Positions 6,856 to 18,185 are shown, counted from the stretch's first letter. The stretch: 48,096 bases of DNA from an uncultured Bacilli bacterium (GCA_944355255.1 CALVQD010000021.1:1-48096), one strand, 5' to 3'. Numbers and translations are program-made. Notes: generated from the sequence alone by a model not told the origin.

Positions 6856-8532
6856 ATGAGAATGATAAAAGTGAATTATAGAAATATTGAAACCAAAGAA
6901 TTTTTAGAAGATTCATCACTTTTGGAAATAAGTGATAGTTTTAAGAAGTACTATAATTATCCTATCTTAGTTGCAAAGGTGGATAATGATATCATGCCTC
7001 TTTCTGAAAAAATAACAAAGAAGTGTGATATTGACTTTTATGATCGTTCGAGTGATGTTGGAAATGAAATATATGGTCGTAGTTTACAATTTGTTCTTAT
7101 TTTAGCTGTGAAACGATTGTTTGGACGTGATGCAGATATTGTAGTGGAACATTCTATTGATAAAGGTGTTTACTGTGAATTACATGGTGCTTCCCTAGAT
7201 AAACCAATTGTTAGAAAACTTGCATCTGAAATGAAGAAAATTGTGGATGAGAATTTGATTTTTACGAAAGTAAGTGTATCGCGCATCGATGCAATTAAGT
7301 ATTTTAAAGCAAAAAAGAAAATGGATAAAGTACATGTCTTAAAATATATCAGTAATACTTATATTAACTTGTATCGATTAGATGATCTATACGATTATTT
7401 CTATGGTGATCTAGTATATAATACCCAAGTATTAGATGATTTTAAACTAACGTATATCAAAGGAAATGGGTTTGTATTAAGCTATCCAGATGTTTATAAT
7501 CCAGAATGTACACTAGACTATAAACATCATCCAAAATTATTTGATGCTTTCCTAGACTATACCAATTGGGGTAGAACATTAGGAATTAATAATGCCGCAG
7601 ATTTGAACGAACAAGTTTCAACTGGTCGTTATGGTGATCTAATTCGTGTTGCCGAAGCATATTACGATGGACAATTATCTAATATTGCTGAAGAAATATA
7701 CAACAAGAAAAATAATATTCGTTTAATCTTACTTGCTGGACCATCTTCAAGTGGTAAGACAACAACAAGTAAAAAATTACAGATATATTTACAAAGTAAA
7801 GGAATTAAAACTCACCAAATATCGATTGATGATTATTACTTAAACCGTGATAAAACACCATTAGATAAAGATGGAAATCCTGATTTTGAAAGTATTCGTG
7901 CCGTTGATTTAGAACTGTTCAATAAACATCTGATGAAATTATTAGAAGGAGAAAAAGTATTACTTCCGGAATTTAATTTTATCACTGGAAAAAGAGAATT
8001 TAAAAAGAAATGGTTACAACTAGGAGAAGACGATATGATTGTGATAGAAGGATTACATGCCTTAAATGATGAACTTACTATGAGTATTGAAAGAAAGCGT
8101 AAATATCGTATTTATATGAGTCCATTAACACAATTAAATATCGATAATCATAATCGTATTCATACGAGTGATACCAGAAAATTAAGAAGAATCATTCGCG
8201 ATAATAAATACCGTGGTTACTCGGCAGCAGATACACTAGCTATGTGGCCAAAAATTCGTGCTGGAGAAGAAAAAAATATTTTTCCATATCAAGAAGATGT
8301 AGATAAAATAATTAATTCTGCACTCCTTTATGAACTCGGTGTATTAAAAACATATGCAGAGCCACTTCTATTTAGTGTGAAAGAAAGCGATCCAATTTAT
8401 CCCGAAGCGTTGCGTTTAATTAACTTCTTAAGAAACTTTTTACCAATTCCTTCAGAGGAAGTACCAAAAGACAGTGTACTTCGTGAATTTATAGGAAATA
8501 GTTGTTTTGGGGAAAATAATCATTTGTCATGA
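6856..8532 (+). CDS. Nucleoside (uridine) kinase with ThrRS-like N-terminal domains
   Basis: N-terminal TGS/ThrRS-editing-like region; P-loop AGPSSSGKTT, IDDYY, IEGLHALN, RRIIRD. Confidence 0.85.
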   Translation: MRMIKVNYRNIETKEFLEDSSLLEISDSFKKYYNYPILVAKVDNDIMPLSEKITKKCDIDFYDRSSDVGNEIYGRSLQFVLILAVKRLFGRDADIVVEHSIDKGVYCELHGASLDKPIVRKLASEMKKIVDENLIFTKVSVSRIDAIKYFKAKKKMDKVHVLKYISNTYINLYRLDDLYDYFYGDLVYNTQVLDDFKLTYIKGNGFVLSYPDVYNPECTLDYKHHPKLFDAFLDYTNWGRTLGINNAADLNEQVSTGRYGDLIRVAEAYYDGQLSNIAEEIYNKKNNIRLILLAGPSSSGKTTTSKKLQIYLQSKGIKTHQISIDDYYLNRDKTPLDKDGNPDFESIRAVDLELFNKHLMKLLEGEKVLLPEFNFITGKREFKKKWLQLGEDDMIVIEGLHALNDELTMSIERKRKYRIYMSPLTQLNIDNHNRIHTSDTRKLRRIIRDNKYRGYSAADTLAMWPKIRAGEEKNIFPYQEDVDKIINSALLYELGVLKTYAEPLLFSVKESDPIYPEALRLINFLRNFLPIPSEEVPKDSVLREFIGNSCFGENNHLS

Positions 8533-8933
8533 TTAAAGTTGCAATCAACGGTTTTGGAAGAATAGGAAAGTTTGCTTATGATCAACTTCATAATGCTGAA
8601 GGTTATCAAATAGTCGCAATCAATGATTTAAGTAGAATATATCATTTAAAAGATGATTCTGCTGTAATTCTTCATGATAAAGAATTTACATCTCCACTAT
8701 GGAGTGAACTTTCAATTGACGTTTTAATCGATACAACTGGAATCACTACAGAAGAAAAAAAACACAAATATTTAGATATAGGAATCAAACATACTGTATT
8801 TGTACCAGATAAAATGGAGCCAACTTTCATTTGGCAGTCAGTTCCTATAATGAATGAAAAAAACTATGCATCAATAGGAAAAGATAGTATTAAAAAATTA
8901 GAAAAAGTCAAAAAAATAGAAAGAGGAAGATAA
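8529..8933 (+). CDS. Truncated GAPDH paralogue (NAD-binding domain only)
   Basis: MIKVAINGFGRIG, IVAINDL, LWSELSIDVLIDTTG; no ASCTTNC catalytic motif; ATGA overlap with the upstream gene. Confidence 0.7.
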   Translation: MIKVAINGFGRIGKFAYDQLHNAEGYQIVAINDLSRIYHLKDDSAVILHDKEFTSPLWSELSIDVLIDTTGITTEEKKHKYLDIGIKHTVFVPDKMEPTFIWQSVPIMNEKNYASIGKDSIKKLEKVKKIERGR

Positions 8934-8934
8934 A

Positions 8935-9942
8935 ATGATAAAAGTAGCAATTAATGGATTTGGAAGAATAGGAAGATTAGTATTTCGTTTAATGGAAGAC
9001 GATGCAAACTTTGAAGTAGTCGCAATCAATGATATTACAGAACCAGAACAACTTGCATATTTATTAAAATACGATACTTCTCATAAGAATTATCGTGTTG
9101 ATGAAATTACATATGGAGAAGATTATATCCAAGTAGGAGATCATAAAATTAAAATCTGTAAAGAATTAGATCCTATCAATTTACCATGGAAAGAATTAGA
9201 AATAGATGAAGTATTTGAATGTACTGGTAAATTTGTAAAATACGAAGATGCTCATAAACATATCGAAGCAGGAGCAAAAAAAGTAATTATCTCTGCTCCA
9301 GGTAAAGGAGATATGAAAACAATTGTATACAATGTCAATAGTGATATATTAGATGGTAGTGAAGAAATCATCAGTGCTGCAAGTTGTACAACAAACTGTT
9401 TAGCACCTGTTGCCAAAGTATTAGATGAAGTATTTGGTATTGAAAAAGGATTCATGACAACTGTTCATGCTTATACCAATGATCAAACTATCTTAGATGT
9501 TGCTCATAAAAAAGGAATCAAAGCACGTCGTGGTAGAGCAGGAGCTGCAAACATTATTCCTGCTAGTACAGGAGCAGCAGTAGCTGTTGGAAAAGTACTT
9601 CCAAACTTACTTGGTAAATTAGATGGAATGGCATTCCGTGTACCAGTAACAGATGGATCTGTTGTCGATCTTACAGTAGAATTAAAAAGAGATGTAACTG
9701 TAGAAGAAGTTAATAATGCATTAAAGAATGCTAGCAATGAAACATTAGGATTCACCATGGATCCAATTGTATCAAGTGATATTATCGGTTCTCACTACGG
9801 AAGTTTAGTAGATGGACTTTGTACTACATTAATTGAAGTAGATGGAAAACAAATGGTAAAAGTAGTTGCTTGGTATGACAACGAAATGAGTTACTCAACA
9901 CAAATGGTTAGAACAGCTAAATTATTAGGAACAATGCTATAA
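8935..9942 (+). CDS. gap: Type I glyceraldehyde-3-phosphate dehydrogenase
   Basis: GFGRIG, ASCTTNC, WYDNE motifs. Confidence 0.98.
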   Translation: MIKVAINGFGRIGRLVFRLMEDDANFEVVAINDITEPEQLAYLLKYDTSHKNYRVDEITYGEDYIQVGDHKIKICKELDPINLPWKELEIDEVFECTGKFVKYEDAHKHIEAGAKKVIISAPGKGDMKTIVYNVNSDILDGSEEIISAASCTTNCLAPVAKVLDEVFGIEKGFMTTVHAYTNDQTILDVAHKKGIKARRGRAGAANIIPASTGAAVAVGKVLPNLLGKLDGMAFRVPVTDGSVVDLTVELKRDVTVEEVNNALKNASNETLGFTMDPIVSSDIIGSHYGSLVDGLCTTLIEVDGKQMVKVVAWYDNEMSYSTQMVRTAKLLGTML

Positions 9943-9954
9943 GCATTGTTTTTT
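9930..9954 (+). terminator. Intrinsic terminator after gap
   Basis: AACAATGCT-ata-AGCATTGTT followed by TTTT. Confidence 0.7.
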
Positions 9955-9967
9955 GATATATAAATAC

Positions 9968-9996
9968 TTGTGAAAGAGGAAACAATATGTTATACT
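9968..9996 (+). promoter_or_regulatory. sigmaA-type promoter at the start of the island
   Basis: TTGTGA, 17 nt, TATACT with TG extended -10. Confidence 0.55.
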
Positions 9997-10009
9997 TTCA
10001 GTAAAGAAG

Positions 10010-11665
10010 GTGAGTAATGTGACTATTTCTGAATTTAAAAAATTTTCAGATAAACTATCACAGTTTTGTACAGCTCCGACCGATACTTGGAAAAAAAGAA
10101 TTTTATTGAAATCTATTTATGACAATCAATTTATGAATATGGTAAATGATATATTAAATCACATTGATAAAATGACAGGTTTAGAGCTTGATCAATTATT
10201 TGAAAAACTAAGAAATTTATCCAATGATGCATTTAAAAAATTTGACGACTCAAAAGACCCGATACAAAAATATAAAAATTATTTGGAAATTGAAGTATAT
10301 TTTGGAGTCATTGAACAGATAGACGAATTATCTAGCTTTTCCGATCGTATTGGTAAAGAAATGTATGAAAAATATGGAAATGAAACAGTTGCGATGATTG
10401 ATAAAGAAAATCCATCCGTATTGACGAGTTTCCAATTTGAAAAATCAAACATGAATTTTGATGATGAATTAATAAAAAAATATTTAGTATTAAAAAAGTG
10501 GCAGGATTTACAGTATATCTATTGTAATGAAGTCTTAGATGGAATTTGCCATTCAGAGCAATTAGAAGAAGAAGTAATTGATTTACTATCTAAAAAATTG
10601 GAAGTGAAAGATAACGCAATTAATTTGTTAGCATTAGATAATCTTCTTTCAGAGTCAATATTAGATATTGATTTAGTTAGTAAATACTATTTAGCGGGAA
10701 TTCAAAAACAATTGGTTCCTATAATTGGAGGGAAAGGCTACGGCCTTGCCATTTTAAATATTTATAGTTCCATACCTAAGACTTATGTAATACCTATTAA
10801 TCATGAATTTCCAACGGATTTTATTTATAATCTTCCTTCTAATATTAAATATTCTGTACGTAGTTCTGCCGATGTAGAAGATGGAAGAGAAAATTCTTTT
10901 GCTGGAATGTTTTCATCATATTTAGATGTCAATCATAAAGACTTAAAAAAATATTACGATAAAGTGAAAGATTCAGTAAACTCAGATAGGGTTCAATCTT
11001 ATATCCAAAGAAAAAAAGCACAACTACCTAAAATGGCAGTAATTATAGAAGAATTTGTAGAACCACAATATTCAGGTGTTTGGCTAGGCCATGATTTAAA
11101 TGACGGTGTTTATGAAATGGTTTTAGGAAATGGCGAGAAATTAGTAAGTGGAGAAGCTACACCATTTCATTTGAGTGGAGATGATGGTAAAAAAATCAAG
11201 AATTATTTCATTGAACTACAAAATACTTTAGAAAAGGTTGCTGATTTTGAATGGTGTGTAATAGATAATAAGATCGTTATGTTACAGTACCGACCTGTCA
11301 CTTCTAAAATTAAATTAAATCCCTCAAAGATGGATGGATATGGTGTAAGTAGTGGTATTGTAAGTGGAGAAATATGTTTTTTGGAATCTTTAGATGATGT
11401 ACAAAATTTTGAAGAAGATAAAATTTTATTAACTTATTTAACTGATCCTGATTGGACTCCCTATATTATGAAATCAAAGGGAGTAGTCACTGCAATAGGT
11501 GGTTATTTATGTCATACTGCTATTATTACACGAGAACTTGGTATTCCATGTGTGACAAATATTGGAATAGAAAAATTGAACCAGTTAAGAAAAGAAAAAG
11601 AAATTACGATAGATGGTGATTTAGGTACAGTGGAATCAAAAAAAAAAGTAAAAGTATTCAAATAA
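10010..11665 (+). CDS. PEP-utilising-enzyme family kinase (PPDK-N ATP-grasp plus His-swivel domain, RPH-like); start may be GTG at 10019
   Basis: IGGKG, VRSSA.VED...SFAG, G.GEKLVSGE, DFEW..LQYRPVT, GGYLCHTAIITRELGIPCV (phospho-His); no C-terminal PEP/pyruvate TIM barrel; ~230 aa unknown N-terminal region. Confidence 0.85.
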   Translation: MSNVTISEFKKFSDKLSQFCTAPTDTWKKRILLKSIYDNQFMNMVNDILNHIDKMTGLELDQLFEKLRNLSNDAFKKFDDSKDPIQKYKNYLEIEVYFGVIEQIDELSSFSDRIGKEMYEKYGNETVAMIDKENPSVLTSFQFEKSNMNFDDELIKKYLVLKKWQDLQYIYCNEVLDGICHSEQLEEEVIDLLSKKLEVKDNAINLLALDNLLSESILDIDLVSKYYLAGIQKQLVPIIGGKGYGLAILNIYSSIPKTYVIPINHEFPTDFIYNLPSNIKYSVRSSADVEDGRENSFAGMFSSYLDVNHKDLKKYYDKVKDSVNSDRVQSYIQRKKAQLPKMAVIIEEFVEPQYSGVWLGHDLNDGVYEMVLGNGEKLVSGEATPFHLSGDDGKKIKNYFIELQNTLEKVADFEWCVIDNKIVMLQYRPVTSKIKLNPSKMDGYGVSSGIVSGEICFLESLDDVQNFEEDKILLTYLTDPDWTPYIMKSKGVVTAIGGYLCHTAIITRELGIPCVTNIGIEKLNQLRKEKEITIDGDLGTVESKKKVKVFK

Positions 11666-11844
11666 GAACTGCTAAAAATAAAGGTTACTATGAGGTGTGG
11701 AATTCGGAAAACGGATTACTTTTGGGGATTACAAAAAAAGTGAAGGATATTTTAGATAAGTGGTTGAATGATGAAAAATTAAACGATAGCGAATTTCTGA
11801 TATTGAATGAGTTTATGAGAATATATATGGAGGAAACAAAATGA
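11620..11844 (+). other. Cryptic 74-codon open frame with an RRE-like pattern and no good start codon
   Basis: -1 frame relative to the kinase, open from 11620: ...IRTAKNKGYYEVWNSENGLLLGITKKVKDILDKWLNDEKLNDSEFLILNEFMRIYMEETK*; its TGA overlaps the ATG of the PqqD gene. Confidence 0.4.
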
Positions 11845-12101
11845 TATATTATATAATAAATCCGCAAATTGTATTTATGAAAAAAAATGATACATATATT
11901 GTTGATTTGAAAGACGAATATTATTACATTAATGAAATTAGTTATTATATTTTACAGTTTTGCAAACAAAAACATACACTTCAAGAAATTATAGAATATA
12001 TTGTTAATAGCTATGACGCTGATGTCAATCTTGTTGCCAAAGATATGAAAAAAATAGTACAAGAGTTTGCAAATTGTGGTATACTTATCTATAAGAGGTG
12101 A
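11841..12101 (+). CDS. PqqD-family RiPP recognition element (RRE)
   Basis: 86 aa; YYYINEISYYILQFC....TLQEIIEYIVNSYDA...VAKDM..IVQEFANCGIL fits the PqqD winged-helix pattern; RBS GGAGG. Confidence 0.85.
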   Translation: MIYYIINPQIVFMKKNDTYIVDLKDEYYYINEISYYILQFCKQKHTLQEIIEYIVNSYDADVNLVAKDMKKIVQEFANCGILIYKR

Positions 12102-12103
12102 TA

Positions 12104-12211
12104 ATGATGAAAAAATATGAAAAACCACTCTTATTTAAATTAGATAAGTCCTTGGGTGGTATGGCTTCTTCTTTCAGTAAATCATACTGTTATGGTGGAG
12201 AGAGTAAATAA
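12104..12211 (+). CDS. Putative RiPP precursor peptide, 35 aa: MMKKYEKPLLFKLDKSLGGMASSFSKSYCYGGESK
   Basis: RBS AAGAGGTG; YxxPxL motif (YEKPLL); sits between the RRE and radical SAM genes; followed by a hairpin. Confidence 0.8.
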   Translation: MMKKYEKPLLFKLDKSLGGMASSFSKSYCYGGESK

Positions 12212-12236
12212 AAATTCCATTTGATGGAATTTTTAT
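12208..12236 (+). terminator. Stem-loop immediately after the precursor gene (partial terminator or mRNA stabiliser)
   Basis: ATAAAAATTCCAT-ttg-ATGGAATTTTTAT, perfect 13-bp inverted repeat. Confidence 0.6.
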
Positions 12237-12253
12237 ATTATAAAGGTGAATTT

Positions 12254-13198
12254 ATGAAAGAAATTTTTGTTTTAAATAGGAATGTAGCGATGGATAATAT
12301 TATATGGGGAAATGTTAGTGGACCAACTTATTGTTATTTAGAAATCACAAGAAGATGCAATTGTCGTTGTCAGTATTGTCAAGTGGGTGACCAAGTTGCT
12401 AAAGATATAGATATACATTTATTTAGAAATATTATTGATAAATTGCATTTAAGCAATACATTTGAAATTCGTTTAGGTGGAGGAGAACCACTATTGTGTC
12501 CAAATATTTCAAGTTTATTAAAGTATATTTATAGTAAAAAAATGTCTGTATGGATATGTACAAATGGTACATTGCTTACAAGGACAATGTGCGAAATGTT
12601 ATTGGCTAATCATGTGGTGGGGGTTCGTATTAGTATTGATTCTTTAGATCATAAAATTCATAACAAAGTTAGAGGGATGCATAATTGTTTGGAACTGGCT
12701 TTAAAAGGTGCTAGCATTGCCACAAAAACCGGATTGCAAGTTGCTATATGTATGACTATAGGAACCCATAATATTGATGAAGTTAAACAAGTGAAAAAAT
12801 ATGCTCATGATAATGGATATCAATTTTATTCACATTATATTATGCCGGTGGGAAAAGGTAAAACATATTTGCAAAATAATAGTTTACCTTCAAACAGTAT
12901 CGTTCAGCAGTTAAATGATATATATGGTGAAAAGAATTGTGTGGCAGTCAATCAATCAATTTCTATTGATATAGACGGATATGTAAGCCCATGTACTTTT
13001 ATAAAGCCAATTATTCATATTAGTAATATTAAAACAAAAAATATACTAATGGATAAATCGTTACAAAAATATACTTATCCAGTCCCTGAAAATCATTGCT
13101 TTGATTGCCAATTTAATAGTACAAAGAGAAATCATAAATGCATTCTGTCATCGATTTGCAAAGGGGGTTGCTGGGCAATTTATGAACAAGATAAATAA
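12254..13198 (+). CDS. Radical SAM/SPASM peptide maturase
   Basis: CNCRCQYC (CxxxCxxC), GGEPL, TNGTL, RISIDS; SPASM CVA..ISIDIDGYVSPC..CFDC..C..ICKGGC; ATG at 12254 after AAAGGTGA. Confidence 0.9.
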   Translation: MKEIFVLNRNVAMDNIIWGNVSGPTYCYLEITRRCNCRCQYCQVGDQVAKDIDIHLFRNIIDKLHLSNTFEIRLGGGEPLLCPNISSLLKYIYSKKMSVWICTNGTLLTRTMCEMLLANHVVGVRISIDSLDHKIHNKVRGMHNCLELALKGASIATKTGLQVAICMTIGTHNIDEVKQVKKYAHDNGYQFYSHYIMPVGKGKTYLQNNSLPSNSIVQQLNDIYGEKNCVAVNQSISIDIDGYVSPCTFIKPIIHISNIKTKNILMDKSLQKYTYPVPENHCFDCQFNSTKRNHKCILSSICKGGCWAIYEQDK

Positions 13199-14633
13199 AA
13201 TATTATTAGTTTATGCAATTAATCATAATCATAATGATTATAGAAAAATCCAAATGCTGGGTATTTCATATTTACAAAGTGCTTTGCATAAAGAAGGGTT
13301 TGATTGTGATTGTTATGACGGAAATATTGGTACTTTGACAGAAGATGAATTAGTAAAATATATAATAGATAAAGCATATGATTTTATAGGTTTTAGTATT
13401 TTGTTTTCTAATACAAAATTATCCTTAAGAATCGCTGAAAGTATAAAAAACATTAATCCTAAAGTAGTTGTTGCGTTTGGCGGAACAAATGCTACTGTCA
13501 TACATAAAGAATTGATTGATAATTATCCATTCATTGATGTTGTTATGAGAGGTGCGGGTGAGGAGATGATAGTTTCTCTTATAAAGGATTATAATAAGCA
13601 CGGGAAGTTTTTGGCGCTATTAAAAAGTTGTAGTTATCAAAATATTAATAACAAAAGAATATATGCGACAGAGATTGCGGAAATAGAAAATTTAGATTCT
13701 TTAGTATATCCTAATAGAGAGCATGCGTTTGAATACTCATATACTATCATTGGAAATGAAAAATATCATAATATTGATATTTCAACAAGTAGAGGATGTC
13801 CATATCAATGTGTGTTTTGTTCTGTTCCCATGTTTCGTTTGAAATGGAAATCACGAAGTGCAAAAAATGTTTTATCCGAAATACAACAGATTTATAATAA
13901 GAAACACAATATATACATTATTTTTATCGATGATAATTTTTTGATTAATGTTGATCGTGCTTTAGAAATAACTAAAGGTATATATTATATGGGTTTAAAA
14001 GATCGTGTAAGGATTCCATTTGTATTTGCAACACGTGCTGATCAATTGTTAAGGTTGTCTAAAGAAACACTACTAAAGTTTAAACAGTATGGATGTTATT
14101 CTATTGAAATTGGAATTGAAAATGGTTCTAATACTGTGTTAAAAAGAATGAAAAAAAATATAACAGTTGAACAAAATGAGCAAATCATAAGTAATTTAGC
14201 GGAAATAGGAATGAATATTGGGATTGACTTTATTTTATTTGATAACAAAACAACTATAAATGAATTGAAAGAAAATTATGATTTTTTTAAAAGAAATGGT
14301 TTGATTGGATATTATCCAGCATTAATTTATAATCAAATGTATCCTTATCCTGGAACAGAATATGCAGAAAAGAATATTGATATGAACCATTATTTCGAAA
14401 ATAAAGATGTAGAATTTGTATATAAGCAGATTGAATTATTTTCAATAGAAATTCAACCGTTTATTGATAAACTTTTGATAAGTCAGAAATTAGATATAAT
14501 AGATGAGATCTGGTTAAAGACATTACCTTATTTTGCATTTGAAAAGTTTTTATTTCATCATTATAGTTTTGAACAATATGAAAAAGAAAATAATATAAAA
14601 GAAAAAATTAGGATAATGGAGGAGAGTGTATGA
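13182..14633 (+). CDS. Cobalamin-dependent (class B) radical SAM enzyme, probable methyltransferase
   Basis: B12-binding domain (LGISYL, IGFS, VAFGGTNAT, VMRGAGEE), TSRGCPYQCVFC, FIDDNF, IGIENGS, YPYPGT; ATG at 13182 overlaps the SPASM gene. Confidence 0.88.
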   Translation: MNKINKILLVYAINHNHNDYRKIQMLGISYLQSALHKEGFDCDCYDGNIGTLTEDELVKYIIDKAYDFIGFSILFSNTKLSLRIAESIKNINPKVVVAFGGTNATVIHKELIDNYPFIDVVMRGAGEEMIVSLIKDYNKHGKFLALLKSCSYQNINNKRIYATEIAEIENLDSLVYPNREHAFEYSYTIIGNEKYHNIDISTSRGCPYQCVFCSVPMFRLKWKSRSAKNVLSEIQQIYNKKHNIYIIFIDDNFLINVDRALEITKGIYYMGLKDRVRIPFVFATRADQLLRLSKETLLKFKQYGCYSIEIGIENGSNTVLKRMKKNITVEQNEQIISNLAEIGMNIGIDFILFDNKTTINELKENYDFFKRNGLIGYYPALIYNQMYPYPGTEYAEKNIDMNHYFENKDVEFVYKQIELFSIEIQPFIDKLLISQKLDIIDEIWLKTLPYFAFEKFLFHHYSFEQYEKENNIKEKIRIMEESV

Positions 14634-15604
14634 CACAATTAGGACAGTGTATTGCGGTGCATAGAGATTGTTGGGAAATTTTATCATCTGGTAAAAAATA
14701 TCGAGCAATTATAAATAATAAGTATGAAAATATAGTATATCCTGTAGTAGGGGATGTTGTTTCTATTAATATTGATTTAAAGAATCAGTCCTGTATTATT
14801 TTGGATATACAACCTCGTACAACAGAATTGTATAGAAATAAAGATGGACATAAAAAAACAATCGCTGCAAATATAGATATTGTTTTTATTACAACCAGTA
14901 TGAATAAAGAATTCAATGTTGGAAAGCTAGAACGACTTTTAATAATGGTAAATCAAAGTGGTGCAAAACCTTGCTTTGTTTTAACAAAAGCGGATATCTG
15001 TACAAATCCAAATATTTATATTGAACAAATAAAAAGACATTTTTCGACAGTTCCATATGTTGTTACATCTTCTTTAAATGAACAAAGTATTGAGTTATTA
15101 AAAACAATGTGGAATCCTGGAGAAACTGCAATTTTTGTGGGAAGTTCTGGAGTAGGAAAAACGACATTAATTAATACTTTGTTGGGATATCAAGTTGGAA
15201 AAGTATATGAAGTTAGGGAAAAGGATGATAAGGGGCGTCACACGACTACTAGTTCTATATATTTAGAATTACCAGATGGACGAAAATTGATAGATTCTCC
15301 TGGAATAAGAAGTGTAGGTCTTCTCAATCTTGATTTTAAAGATATTAATGAAGTTTTTTCATTCATTAGTGAAAATGAAAAAATGTGTCAATATAAAAAT
15401 TGTACGCATACAAATGAAAATGGTTGTAGAATTATCGAGTTATTAAATGAAGGAATAATTGACGAGAATGATTATCGTCGTTACTTAAAAATGAAACGAC
15501 AAATATTATATGATGCACAAAAAAGTGGAATTGATAATCGTGCAGATTGGGAAAAGAGGAGAGATTTACTACAAAAGAAAAAAAAGTATCGCAAAAGAAG
15601 ATAA
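14630..15604 (+). CDS. rsgA: Ribosome small subunit-dependent GTPase RsgA (paralogue inside the RiPP operon)
   Basis: OB-fold VVGD; circularly permuted G4 TKAD, G1 GSSGVGKTT, G2 GRHTTT, G3 DSPG; Zn finger CQYKNCTHTNENGC. Confidence 0.92.
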   Translation: MTQLGQCIAVHRDCWEILSSGKKYRAIINNKYENIVYPVVGDVVSINIDLKNQSCIILDIQPRTTELYRNKDGHKKTIAANIDIVFITTSMNKEFNVGKLERLLIMVNQSGAKPCFVLTKADICTNPNIYIEQIKRHFSTVPYVVTSSLNEQSIELLKTMWNPGETAIFVGSSGVGKTTLINTLLGYQVGKVYEVREKDDKGRHTTTSSIYLELPDGRKLIDSPGIRSVGLLNLDFKDINEVFSFISENEKMCQYKNCTHTNENGCRIIELLNEGIIDENDYRRYLKMKRQILYDAQKSGIDNRADWEKRRDLLQKKKKYRKRR

Positions 15605-15656
15605 CAGTATCGACATAGTATATGTTCTGTTGTTGTAAATAGTCTATACATTTTAG

Positions 15657-15842
15657 CCTTTTGAATTTCTAGTAAAAGATCATACTGTTATTATTGTTGC
15701 ACATCGTCTATCTACCATTGTAGATGCTGACGAAATTCATGTTATTCAACAGGGAAATGATGTTGCATGTGGCACTCATGAAGAACTTTTGAAAACAAGT
15801 GATGTATATCAAAAGTTATATGAAACAGAATCTTCAAACTAA
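15657..15842 (+). pseudogene. C-terminal remnant of an ABC exporter ATP-binding domain
   Basis: Frame reads ..LVKDHTVIIVAHRLSTIVDADEIHVIQQGNDVACGTHEELLKTSDVYQKLYETESSN* (H-loop); in-frame stop at 15654 and no start codon. Confidence 0.85.
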
Positions 15843-15864
15843 GGAAAGTTTTCTTTCCTTTTTT
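15841..15864 (+). terminator. Intrinsic terminator closing the island
   Basis: AAGGAAAG-tttt-CTTTCCTT followed by TTTT. Confidence 0.65.
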
Positions 15865-15964
15865 CTTACAATTTTGTCATCTGAATCGATTTTCTTTGTA
15901 AAAAGATAGAAACATGGTAAAATAGTAATGTATGAATATGGAAATATAGAATTGGAGTGATACA

Positions 15965-17143
15965 ATGAAAAAGACGATTCGAGATTATGACTTATTTGAG
16001 AAAAGAGTGTTAATTCGTTGTGATTTTAATGTGCCAATGAAAGATGGTGTGATTACTGATGATTATCGTATTCAATCTAGTTTAGATACAATTCGATATG
16101 CATTAGATCATCATGCGAAAGTAATATTACTTTCACATTTAGGAAGAATAAAAGAAGAAAGTGATAAAAAGAAGAATGATTTAAAACCAGTAGCAGTTCG
16201 TCTTAGCGAATTGTTAGGTAAAACAGTAACATTTATACCAGAAACAAGAGGACAACAGTTGGAACAAGCTGTTATGGAAATGAATTCAGGAGATGTTATT
16301 TTAATTCAAAATACAAGATATGAAGATTTAGATGGTAAAAAAGAAAGTAAGAATGATCCTGAATTAGGACGTTATTGGGCCTCTTTGGGAGATATTTATA
16401 TTAATGATGCCTTTGGTACTTGTCATCGTGAACATGCTTCTAATGTTGGAATTGCGACTCATTTACCAAGTGGAATTGGCTTTTTAGTAGAAAAAGAAAT
16501 AGAAAATATAGAAAATGTGGTAGCTCATCCAGAAAGACCATTTACAGTGATTTTAGGGGGAGCAAAAGTTAGTGATAAAATAAAAGTCATAGAAAACTTA
16601 GTGACAAAAGCAGATCATATTTTGATTGGTGGTGGAATGGCTTATACATTTTTAAAAGCCCAAGGCTTTGAAATTGGAAAGTCATTGTTAGATGAAGAGT
16701 CTATTGCATTTTGTCAATCCATGTTATCTAAGTATCCAGATAAGATTGTATTACCAAAAGATCATTATGTATCTGAGTCAACAGATGGACAAGGATTATT
16801 AAAAACAGTTTCAGAAACAGACGCAAAAGATATGGGATTAGATATTGGAGATGAAACGATTCAAATGTTTTCAGAAATATTAAAACAAAGTCATACTGTG
16901 ATTTGGAATGGACCGGTTGGTTTATTTGAAAATCCATCATTTCAAAAAGGAACAGTTGCACTTTGTGAAGCAATGAAAGAAGTTTCTGGTAAGACAATTG
17001 TCGGTGGTGGAGATACTGCTAGTGCAGTAAAAAAACTAGGATATGAAGATGTTTTTACTCATATTTCAACTGGAGGAGGAGCCTCTTTAGAATTATTGGA
17101 AGGAAAGATATTACCAGGAATTGCTTGTATTTCAGATAAATAG
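15965..17143 (+). CDS. pgk: Phosphoglycerate kinase
   Basis: RCDFNVP, SHLGR, NDAFG, GGAKVSDK, WNGPVG, STGGGASLE. Confidence 0.98.
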   Translation: MKKTIRDYDLFEKRVLIRCDFNVPMKDGVITDDYRIQSSLDTIRYALDHHAKVILLSHLGRIKEESDKKKNDLKPVAVRLSELLGKTVTFIPETRGQQLEQAVMEMNSGDVILIQNTRYEDLDGKKESKNDPELGRYWASLGDIYINDAFGTCHREHASNVGIATHLPSGIGFLVEKEIENIENVVAHPERPFTVILGGAKVSDKIKVIENLVTKADHILIGGGMAYTFLKAQGFEIGKSLLDEESIAFCQSMLSKYPDKIVLPKDHYVSESTDGQGLLKTVSETDAKDMGLDIGDETIQMFSEILKQSHTVIWNGPVGLFENPSFQKGTVALCEAMKEVSGKTIVGGGDTASAVKKLGYEDVFTHISTGGGASLELLEGKILPGIACISDK

Positions 17144-17150
17144 AAAGTAG

Positions 17151-18185
17151 GTGTCACATAAATTGAAAACAGAAAAGAAAAAGGTCAGTAGTGCACTTAA
17201 CATTATTCTATTAGTACTTGTTACAGGAATTGTTCTTTATTTTTCACTAAAAGATGACTATCAAATGATTTTACATGAAATATTTACAATGAATCTTTGG
17301 TGGTTACTAATTGGTGTTTTATTAGTACTTGGGTGTTATTATTTAAGAAGTATATCACTTCATATACTAATTCGTAAATTTACTGATAAATACAGTTTTA
17401 AAAAAGCATTTAAATTAACTCTTACTACACAGTTTTTAAATGGTGTAACTCCCTTTGCAACTGGTGGACAACCATTTCAAGTTTATATTTTAAAAAAAGA
17501 TGGAATTCGTATTGGAGATGGGACCAATATTATTATGCAGAATTTCATCGTATATCAAATTGCTTTAGTACTACTTGGTGTACTTGCTATTAGTTACAAT
17601 TTTTTCTTTCACATATTTGAAGAATCAGGAATTCTTCGTGATTTAACAACAGTTGGATTTATTATTAATACGCTCGTAACGGTCGGGTTATTTGTTATCG
17701 CATTTGCAAAAAACTTTAATCGTTTTATCATTCGTAAGACTGTATCTTTGATGTATCGTTTACATATTATTAAAAATAAAGAGACAGTAATGGATAAGAT
17801 GAGTGATTCGATTGAAAATTTTCACGATGGAGCAAAATTACTCATGAAAGATAAAAAAAGTTTTATCTATAATATTTTCTTAAATTTCTTATCCCTTGTT
17901 TGTCTTTATTTAGTACCACTTACTATTATTTATGGAATGGGGGTCACAGATGCCTTTACTGGGGTAGAATCTGTTGTCGCAAGTGCCTATGTAATGTTAA
18001 TTGGTGCTTTCGTTCCAATTCCTGGTGGTACGGGGGGATTAGAATATAGTTATATGGCTTTCTATGGTAATTTTATCAAAGGAAGTGTATTGAATGCCAG
18101 TATGATTATGTGGAGATTTTTAACTTATTATCTCGGTATGATTGTTGGTGGTATTACATTAAATTTAAAAGGAAGGAAGAAGTAA
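17151..18185 (+). CDS. Lysylphosphatidylglycerol synthase TM-domain / flippase-like membrane protein
   Basis: Multiple TM helices; TPFATGGQP, PIPGGTGGLE, WRFLTYY. Confidence 0.8.
   Translation: MSHKLKTEKKKVSSALNIILLVLVTGIVLYFSLKDDYQMILHEIFTMNLWWLLIGVLLVLGCYYLRSISLHILIRKFTDKYSFKKAFKLTLTTQFLNGVTPFATGGQPFQVYILKKDGIRIGDGTNIIMQNFIVYQIALVLLGVLAISYNFFFHIFEESGILRDLTTVGFIINTLVTVGLFVIAFAKNFNRFIIRKTVSLMYRLHIIKNKETVMDKMSDSIENFHDGAKLLMKDKKSFIYNIFLNFLSLVCLYLVPLTIIYGMGVTDAFTGVESVVASAYVMLIGAFVPIPGGTGGLEYSYMAFYGNFIKGSVLNASMIMWRFLTYYLGMIVGGITLNLKGRKK

Follow-up and report, generated by a model that had tools for sequence, protein, structure and literature searches.

What is the block of genes that separates gap from pgk in an uncultured Bacilli bacterium of the chicken gut, and what would it make? 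In the window, by which we mean the whole 48,096-nucleotide stretch analysed (GCA_944355255.1 CALVQD010000021.1:1-48096), ORF calling places seven co-oriented open reading frames (ORFs), all on the + strand, in the interval from gap (8935-9942) to pgk (15965-17143), as a preliminary description of this DNA had claimed. They encode a dikinase-type phosphotransferase, a protein of 49 amino acids (aa), a stand-alone recognition element (RRE) of the PqqD family, a short peptide, a radical S-adenosylmethionine (SAM) enzyme with a SPASM domain, a B12-binding radical SAM enzyme and a second, divergent copy of the GTPase RsgA, which we call RsgA2. The reading that we favour, and regard on balance as probable, is that they form a horizontally acquired operon of a small, unnamed family of pathways for radical-SAM RiPPs (peptides that are made by the ribosome and modified after translation), in which RsgA2 possibly protects the producer's 30S subunit. 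What underlies this reading is observed directly: which genes are present, that the peptide is conserved, as are RsgA2 and the kinase, where the island inserted, and that it was transferred recently.

Homologous loci were sought by pattern scans for the SPASM family in 185,579 species genomes and in metagenomes. The scans yielded one true locus in the species genomes (L018, from a Lachnoclostridium metagenome-assembled genome, MAG) and five in metagenomes (L021-L025), while the remaining matches were distant radical SAM genes and were rejected as family loci. Together with the window and a second carrier of the same genus (G002), eight loci were inspected, of which G002 does not cover the precursor region since its contig ends within the B12 gene. 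The preliminary description had named the lack of a conserved small peptide at homologous loci as grounds for abandoning a RiPP; a small peptide lies upstream of the SPASM gene in all seven loci that cover that position, and the RiPP reading therefore holds.

The window precursor (12104..12211, +; MMKKYEKPLLFKLDKSLGGMASSFSKSYCYGGESK) has 35 aa from the ATG at 12104, or 37 aa from a GTG at 12098. The seven peptides share the leader motif Y-x-K-P-x-[LIV] and the C-terminal core [FYL]-[SN]-x-S-[YW]-C-Y-x-[GS]-x-[SG]-[KR], and one proline, one serine, the single core cysteine and the tyrosine directly after it are invariant, corresponding to P8, S27, C29 and Y30 when the window precursor is aligned with its six homologues. 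Peptides called in public data were searched with an alignment headed by the 46-aa L021 peptide; 13 unnamed ones show the same pattern, one of which has Phe in place of Tyr/Trp, and the called protein P0131 is near-identical to the window precursor. A 13-bp hairpin (12208..12236, +; -11.5 kcal/mol, z -2.8) covers the precursor stop codon (12209-12211) and extends beyond it, and similar hairpins lie 3' of the precursor in four of the six loci folded.

Directly upstream, the 86-aa PqqD-family RRE (11841..12101, +) matches PF05402 with 40.7 bits against a cut-off of 23.4. The PqqD domain is also present in L023, L024 and L025, whereas in L018 the corresponding protein matched lasso-type PqqD models only, below their cut-offs. 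Two loci show irregularities here. In L022 (1000-1300), the PqqD gene reads through only with a frame shift, for which either decay or misassembly of a low-coverage contig may be responsible; in L023 (508-933), the PqqD domain and the precursor lie in a single 141-aa open frame with no stop between them, so that this frame is either a fused RRE-precursor or contains an in-frame internal start.

The radical SAM/SPASM enzyme (12254..13198, +; 314 aa, start set by homology) matches Pfam Radical_SAM and SPASM above their gathering scores and has no RRE of its own. Its start at ATG 12254 and that of the B12 gene at ATG 13182, both matched to homologues, give the two genes an overlap of 17 nt, in agreement with the coupling described earlier. 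The radical SAM cysteines C35, C39 and C42 (CX3CX2C) and seven C-terminal SPASM cysteines are invariant in 29 aligned members. As judged by similarity scores, this protein family appears sharply bounded: its members are 31 protein clusters at E<=5e-57 plus a single fragment, after which no match occurs before 1e-21. An AlphaFold2 (AF2) model of the enzyme (mean predicted local distance difference test, pLDDT, 82) has the RiPP maturases SkfB, SuiB and CteB as its best solved-structure matches, and a sequence comparison likewise ranks SkfB first among solved structures. A conserved leader and core peptide next to a PqqD protein and such a SPASM gene bear out the RiPP-type cluster that had been proposed.

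The proposal that the cluster fits no named RiPP class also stands, in that no NCBIfam model of a named maturation family reaches its cut-off. The window enzyme scores 70.2 against 850 for AlbA, 69.6 against 340 for PapB and 61.6 against 300 for SkfB, and the L018 enzyme scores 66.8 against 625 for StsB. Taken together, the system seems to work like an RRE-dependent radical-SAM RiPP pathway while falling under the cut-off of every named family, and we consider it very likely that it is a RiPP operon of a new family. As for the chemistry, a cysteine cross-link made by the SPASM enzyme has, in our estimate, an even chance of being correct; the likeness to SkfB and CteB makes a thioether formed by the single cysteine the simplest conjecture.

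The second radical SAM enzyme (13182..14633, +; 483 aa), whose start was chosen by homology to L018 and L024, belongs to class B in that a B12-binding N-terminal domain (PF02310, 65 bits) precedes a radical SAM core (PF04055, 66.2 bits). The best NCBIfam score is with BchE (138.9 bits), HpnJ also being among the best, and the best solved match is OxsB with 86 bits, compared with 26.8 bits for the methyltransferase TokK. The product had been described as methylated. The class B domains behind that claim are present, but the enzyme scores only 115.9 against a cut-off of 281.85 on the RiPP C-methyltransferase model TIGR03975, and methylation is uncertain because BchE and OxsB, its nearest characterised relatives, are not methyltransferases. 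We therefore weigh methylation by this enzyme equally against other outcomes.

The first gene of the block encodes a 551-aa dikinase-type phosphotransferase (10010..11665, +; PPDK_N 90.4 bits, PEP-utilizers 67.9 bits). Its AF2 model (pLDDT 89.5) shows a helical N-domain (residues 1-250), an ATP-grasp domain and a swivel-His domain carrying His502, which aligns to the histidine of the mobile domain of phosphoenolpyruvate (PEP) synthase, and its nearest folds in a Foldseek search are PPDK and RPH. Like RPH and PPDK/PEP synthase, it has the ATP-grasp and swivelling phospho-His domains and keeps the catalytic histidine; unlike them, it has 551 rather than ~865 residues, a different domain order and a helical N-domain in place of the rifampin- or PEP-binding domain. 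It scores 99.9 bits on the rifampin phosphotransferase model, whose cut-off is 999. A kinase of this PEP/dikinase type is also found in L021 and L022, while L018, L023, L024 and L025 have instead a P-loop-type kinase of ~380 aa that is unrelated to it and resembles HPr kinase weakly, below cut-offs. All seven loci able to show a kinase thus have one, in two unrelated forms, which argues that phosphorylation is part of the pathway. Of these kinases only that of L024 was queried against the Atlas; the named clusters nearest to it carry PqqD, which would fit action on a precursor still bearing its leader and gives a lead that the P-loop protein recognises the leader. We think it rather likely that the kinase acts on the peptide. 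The 49-aa ORF that follows the window kinase (11695..11844, +) overlaps pqqD by ATGA and may or may not be a true gene. At its N-terminus it is similar to the segment where the C-terminal domain of the L018 P-loop kinase begins (BLASTP, 10/21 identical, E 5e-6 for the pair), and no match to the L024 kinase was found.

The last gene of the block encodes RsgA2 (14630..15604, +; 324 aa). Its Pfam domain, RsgA_GTPase, scores above the gathering threshold, as do all Pfam domains named for the other proteins of the block. It shares an ATGA overlap with the B12 gene at 14630-14633, as had been noted, with a GGAGGAG ribosome-binding site upstream. Its score on TIGR00157 (157 bits, cut-off 100) makes this the only named-family NCBIfam model that reaches its cut-off among the island proteins. 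RsgA2 keeps the permuted GTPase motifs G1, G3 and G4 and the zinc finger C-x4-C-x-H-x5-C, and differs in two features, an insert of ~10 residues that follows the OB domain and a basic tail of ~35 aa at the C-terminus. Both genomes that could be checked hold a housekeeping RsgA in addition to the cluster copy: in the window genome (G000), the housekeeping copy on contig C2 scores 242.6 bits and the island copy 157.6 bits, and in the Lachnoclostridium MAG G433 the scores are 252 and 161 bits. In a tree of 34 rows, all five copies from clusters fall together (support 94/89), separate from the 26 housekeeping copies (99/98), and the branching of the cluster copies mirrors the similarity of the SPASM enzymes, the window grouping with L021 and L018 with L024. 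By scores and tree, RsgA2 is not the housekeeping orthologue.

RsgA2 is present in all five loci that reach far enough (window, G002, L018, L021 and L024), and the contigs of L022, L023 and L025, which are without it, stop in or soon after the radical-SAM genes. Its gene overlaps the B12 gene in the window and L021 and the second ABC gene in L018 and L024, in the latter also the S8 peptidase gene; it is translationally coupled to its neighbours. The preliminary description could not match the gene combination, above all the RsgA and the kinase, to a named RiPP class, and this remains so; the two are not mere oddities, however, but conserved parts of the system. In the fuller loci, L018 and L024, RsgA2 adjoins exporter genes, and immunity genes are commonly found next to exporters. 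The excerpted part of PMC9032327 places the binding site of RsgA at the decoding centre and describes the release of RbfA from 30S subunits by RsgA. An RsgA copy within the cluster hints that the product acts on the small ribosomal subunit. We favour, tentatively, a role of RsgA2 in protecting the producer's 30S subunit, because it is an extra, co-inherited and intact copy of a factor that binds the decoding centre. A complex prediction of RsgA2 with the precursor scored 0.00 and is uninformative for or against.

Putting these elements together, we infer the chemical steps, the target and the immunity role as follows. The PqqD protein would bind the precursor leader through Y-x-K-P-x-[LIV] and hand the precursor to the enzymes. 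The SPASM enzyme would work on the invariant S-[YW]-C-Y, most likely forming a thioether between the single cysteine and a neighbouring residue, and the B12 radical-SAM enzyme would make a second radical change, either C-methylation or another rearrangement. The swivel-His kinase may transfer a phosphate of ATP via His502 to one of the peptide's hydroxyl groups, for which the invariant Ser and Tyr are candidates. RsgA2 would then act on the producer's own 30S subunit, most likely keeping it working despite product bound near the decoding centre. The full version of this proposal, in which a radical-SAM-modified, possibly phosphorylated peptide binds the 30S subunit at or near the decoding centre and RsgA2 is the first ribosome-protection GTPase of the RsgA family, clearing or excluding that peptide from the producer's ribosomes through the normal RsgA site and GTP hydrolysis, is speculative and in our view rather doubtful.

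How did the block come to lie where it is? A blastn comparison of window positions 8000-17200 with two cluster-free congeners, G003 and G004, shows that homology ends at 9953 and picks up again at 15668. The insert is thus 9954..15667 (+), a 5.7-kb island with no counterpart in these genomes, because their homology to the window breaks off at the first point and returns at the second. The extent of 9968-15864 given earlier therefore needs correction, since its right end is resident DNA. By tblastn, both congeners carry, in this order, a short gap-like ORF, gap, the last part of a gene for an ABC exporter, and pgk, and the ORF list of G003 shows a full-length 594-aa ABC exporter gene followed by a 111-aa ORF in the gap-pgk interval. 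The island took the place of the 5' ~533 codons (~1.77 kb) of this resident exporter gene. Its last 61 codons remain in the window without a start codon (15657..15842, +; tblastn and ORF data), and this frame is an insertion scar and not an exporter belonging to the cluster. The suggestion to look in related genomes for an empty gap-pgk site was thus borne out in part: the cluster is absent from G003 and G004, but gap and pgk are not adjacent there, and the island does not split a neighbouring pair, as had been thought, since the exporter gene already lay between them.

Among 60 relatives searched with the B12 enzyme, G002 is the only other carrier of the island. Over 2.7 kb the two copies share 98.3% identity, against 87% for the adjoining pgk; synonymous divergence between G000 and G002 is 0.058 for the B12 gene and 0.010 for rsgA2, compared with 0.38 for pgk. 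The island thus moved recently between species, because it is ~98% identical where pgk is 87% identical and its synonymous divergence is low relative to pgk. The pN/pS ratio (nonsynonymous over synonymous) of the B12 gene in the same comparison is 0.15, which points to purifying selection on the island. The recent spread between gut species with reduced genomes of ~1.2 Mb (G000 has 1.19 Mb in 102 contigs and is 90.8% complete) suggests that the island confers an advantage in the gut habitat.

The stretch was found in 19 DNA sequencing runs, which belong to 10 studies and may include the source study, and the runs are labelled chicken gut, dust or plain metagenome. Contigs cross the junctions in three other DNA runs: in X7 a single contig (9852-16042) spans both, in X12 the left and right junctions are crossed by separate contigs, and in X5 the right junction is crossed. 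An RNA library gave two clean contigs, at 11354-11605 in the kinase gene and 13217-13558 in the B12 gene, a weak hint of transcription; most of the island is without a contig in that run, which is uninformative on expression.

Several known systems resemble the island in part. The sactipeptide and ranthipeptide systems (SkfB, CteB, PapB, AlbA) share with it a short leader-bearing peptide with core cysteine, an RRE and a full SPASM domain; the island differs in having a separate protein as RRE, one cysteine in the core, a thioether that is putative, and three further components, namely a B12 radical-SAM enzyme, a kinase and an RsgA paralogue. QhpD/QhpE, which mature quinohemoprotein amine dehydrogenase, likewise combine a thioether-forming SPASM enzyme with a leader peptidase that is small and subtilisin-like, and the S8 peptidase of L018 scores 80.6 bits on the QhpE model. 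That score is under the cut-off of 165, however, the window is without such a peptidase, and there are no dehydrogenase subunits. The phosphorylated lasso peptides of Firmicutes (paeninodin type) combine PqqD, a precursor kinase related to HPr kinase, a PF14907 nucleotidyltransferase and ABC exporters, a set that occurs together in L018 and L024. Unlike in those pathways, neither a lasso cyclase nor a leader protease was seen among the ORFs examined, maturation falls to radical SAM enzymes, and the window kinase is of the unrelated PEP/dikinase type.

For RsgA2, the closest parallels are forms of self-resistance by target copy or ribosome protection, such as the EF-Tu copies in producer clusters, TetM/TetO, HflXr and ABC-F proteins. 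The likeness lies in a divergent second translation-linked GTPase within a biosynthetic operon, with an intact housekeeping copy in the genome; the difference is that no RsgA-family protein was found in this role in the literature searched, and that such a role of RsgA2 is putative. The one place where RsgA appeared in the context of self-resistance is a table row in the excerpt of PMC9290621. In the full-text literature searched, the gene set is not described, though supplementary tables of radical-SAM RiPP surveys, which lie outside that search, may list the family, and the excerpted part of a review of B12 radical SAM enzymes (PMC12931638) names no such system. To a specialist, the surprising feature would be the conserved RsgA paralogue.

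Some of our results weigh against the reading of the island as a RiPP operon with RsgA-based protection. The top NCBIfam matches of the SPASM enzyme are cofactor enzymes, NirJ2 (95.6 bits) and MoaA (90.4), at one third of their cut-offs or less, and the nearest characterised relatives of the B12 enzyme catalyse reactions other than methylation. The window island contains neither an exporter nor a leader peptidase, while in L018 and L024 two ABC genes are present together with a peptidase of the S8 type. RsgA2-like paralogues stand alone, with no conserved neighbours, in 19 of 398 other genomes of a phylum sample, and the subfamily therefore has a role outside RiPP clusters; the literature searched holds no precedent for an RsgA-type immunity protein; and the family loci, eight in all, are few.

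The most probable alternative, though we consider it unlikely, is that the peptide stays in the producer as a modified 30S-binding factor that RsgA2 loads or removes, or that RsgA2 directly aids maturation. An island that has no exporter or peptidase and yet keeps its ORFs intact and under purifying selection would agree with this, as would the ATGA junction of RsgA2 with the B12 gene in the window, their overlap in L021 and the release of RbfA from the 30S subunit described in the excerpt of PMC9032327. On the other hand, the two ABC exporter genes and the S8 peptidase within the L018 and L024 operons point to secretion. In addition, the window precursor, alone among the family peptides, has a Gly-Gly before the core, and a single C39-peptidase ABC transporter is encoded elsewhere in G000 (contig C41:4135-4539, L077, 99 bits), so that processing of the window leader in trans by this transporter is possible.

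That the window copy is instead a decaying remnant, whose product is useless without exporter and peptidase, is less probable still. Besides the missing genes, this idea draws on the rarity of the family, as the SPASM profile found no further copy in two class samples (398 other genomes for the class of the window, and again 398 for that of G433), and on two damaged relatives, namely L022 with its frameshifted pqqD and L024 with an IS110 transposase between the precursor and SPASM genes. All seven ORFs of the window are intact, however, and the pN/pS of the B12 gene, the recent spread between two species, the occurrence in numerous DNA runs and, as a weak hint, the two RNA contigs all speak against decay.

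We give slightly less weight again to a peptide that serves as precursor of a small redox cofactor or metabolite, in the style of PQQ (PqqA/D/E) or mycofactocin (MftA/B/C), and is not itself bioactive. The layout of short peptide, PqqD-family chaperone and SPASM enzyme is identical, an invariant tyrosine, recalling the tyrosine that is essential to the cores of those systems, lies in a very short and strongly conserved core, and the SPASM enzyme scores 81.5 bits on MftC and 54.6 on PqqE. Both scores are far under the cut-offs of these equivalogs (265 and 381), however, the other genes of these pathways are missing, no dehydrogenase partner is present at any family locus, and the ABC exporters of the related loci, the kinase and RsgA2 are foreign to PQQ and mycofactocin pathways; moreover, the best structural matches, SkfB, SuiB and CteB, are peptide cross-linkers. 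Finally, it is very improbable that RsgA2 and the kinase merely travel with the peptide gene and are functionally unconnected with its product: RsgA2-like genes do stand alone elsewhere, but RsgA2 is retained in five of five informative loci despite differing gene order, its tree parallels SPASM similarity, and a kinase accompanies every locus able to show one, in two unrelated forms.

If the reading as a RiPP operon with RsgA2-based protection is correct, the locus would define a new radical-SAM RiPP family with an unusual set of a SPASM enzyme, a B12 radical SAM enzyme and a kinase in two unrelated forms. The target of the product could then be guessed from the conserved ribosome-factor paralogue within the cluster, making a resistance-guided search for a 30S-directed peptide testable, and RsgA would join the short list of translation GTPases recruited to antibiotic protection.

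The remaining features concern the edges of the island and its relatives. A promoter of the cluster's own had been placed at 9968..9996 (+), where a motif scan finds a TG-extended TTGTGA-17-TATACT site; such promoter-like sites are at chance level, with 65 found against 65.1 expected from shuffles, and this one carries no weight. The terminator likewise attributed to the cluster, a hairpin at 15841..15860 (+), comes after the 61-codon remnant and belongs to the resident ABC gene. Direct and inverted repeats were looked for at the island ends and none marks them, no integrase was seen, and an Rfam scan of the window gave no match.

The kinase profile gave one weak partial match among 400 other genomes. 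Second RsgA copies in G041 and G008 were considered as RiPP-linked and rejected, having no adjoining RiPP genes. The closest relative of the cluster copies outside their group is the stand-alone RsgA2-like gene of G041 (L071, G041:C58, 8382-10237). A GNAT gene (PF18015) abuts it by one base, and it is flanked by mutS/mutL on one side and cotE/miaB on the other. In L024, the copy of which comes from a fermentation metagenome, the IS110-family transposase is a fragment on the - strand (7145-7732; PF02371, 78 bits), and two small ORFs resemble acyl-carrier proteins by eye. L023 has two tandem B12 radical-SAM genes and an S24/S26-like peptidase. A PF14907 nucleotidyltransferase is encoded after RsgA2 in L018 (11231-12157) and after the S8 peptidase in L024 (15703-16617), both being P-loop-kinase variants.

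On the far side of gap in the window, directly 5' of it, a 134-aa ORF (8529-8933) matches PF00044 with 48.8 bits, corresponding to a GAPDH-like NAD-binding N-terminus, and has an overlap with the 558-aa gene before it, at that gene's end. A counterpart of 110 aa is found at the same place in G003, and a weaker tblastn match in G004; the ORF is a conserved gap-derived stub.

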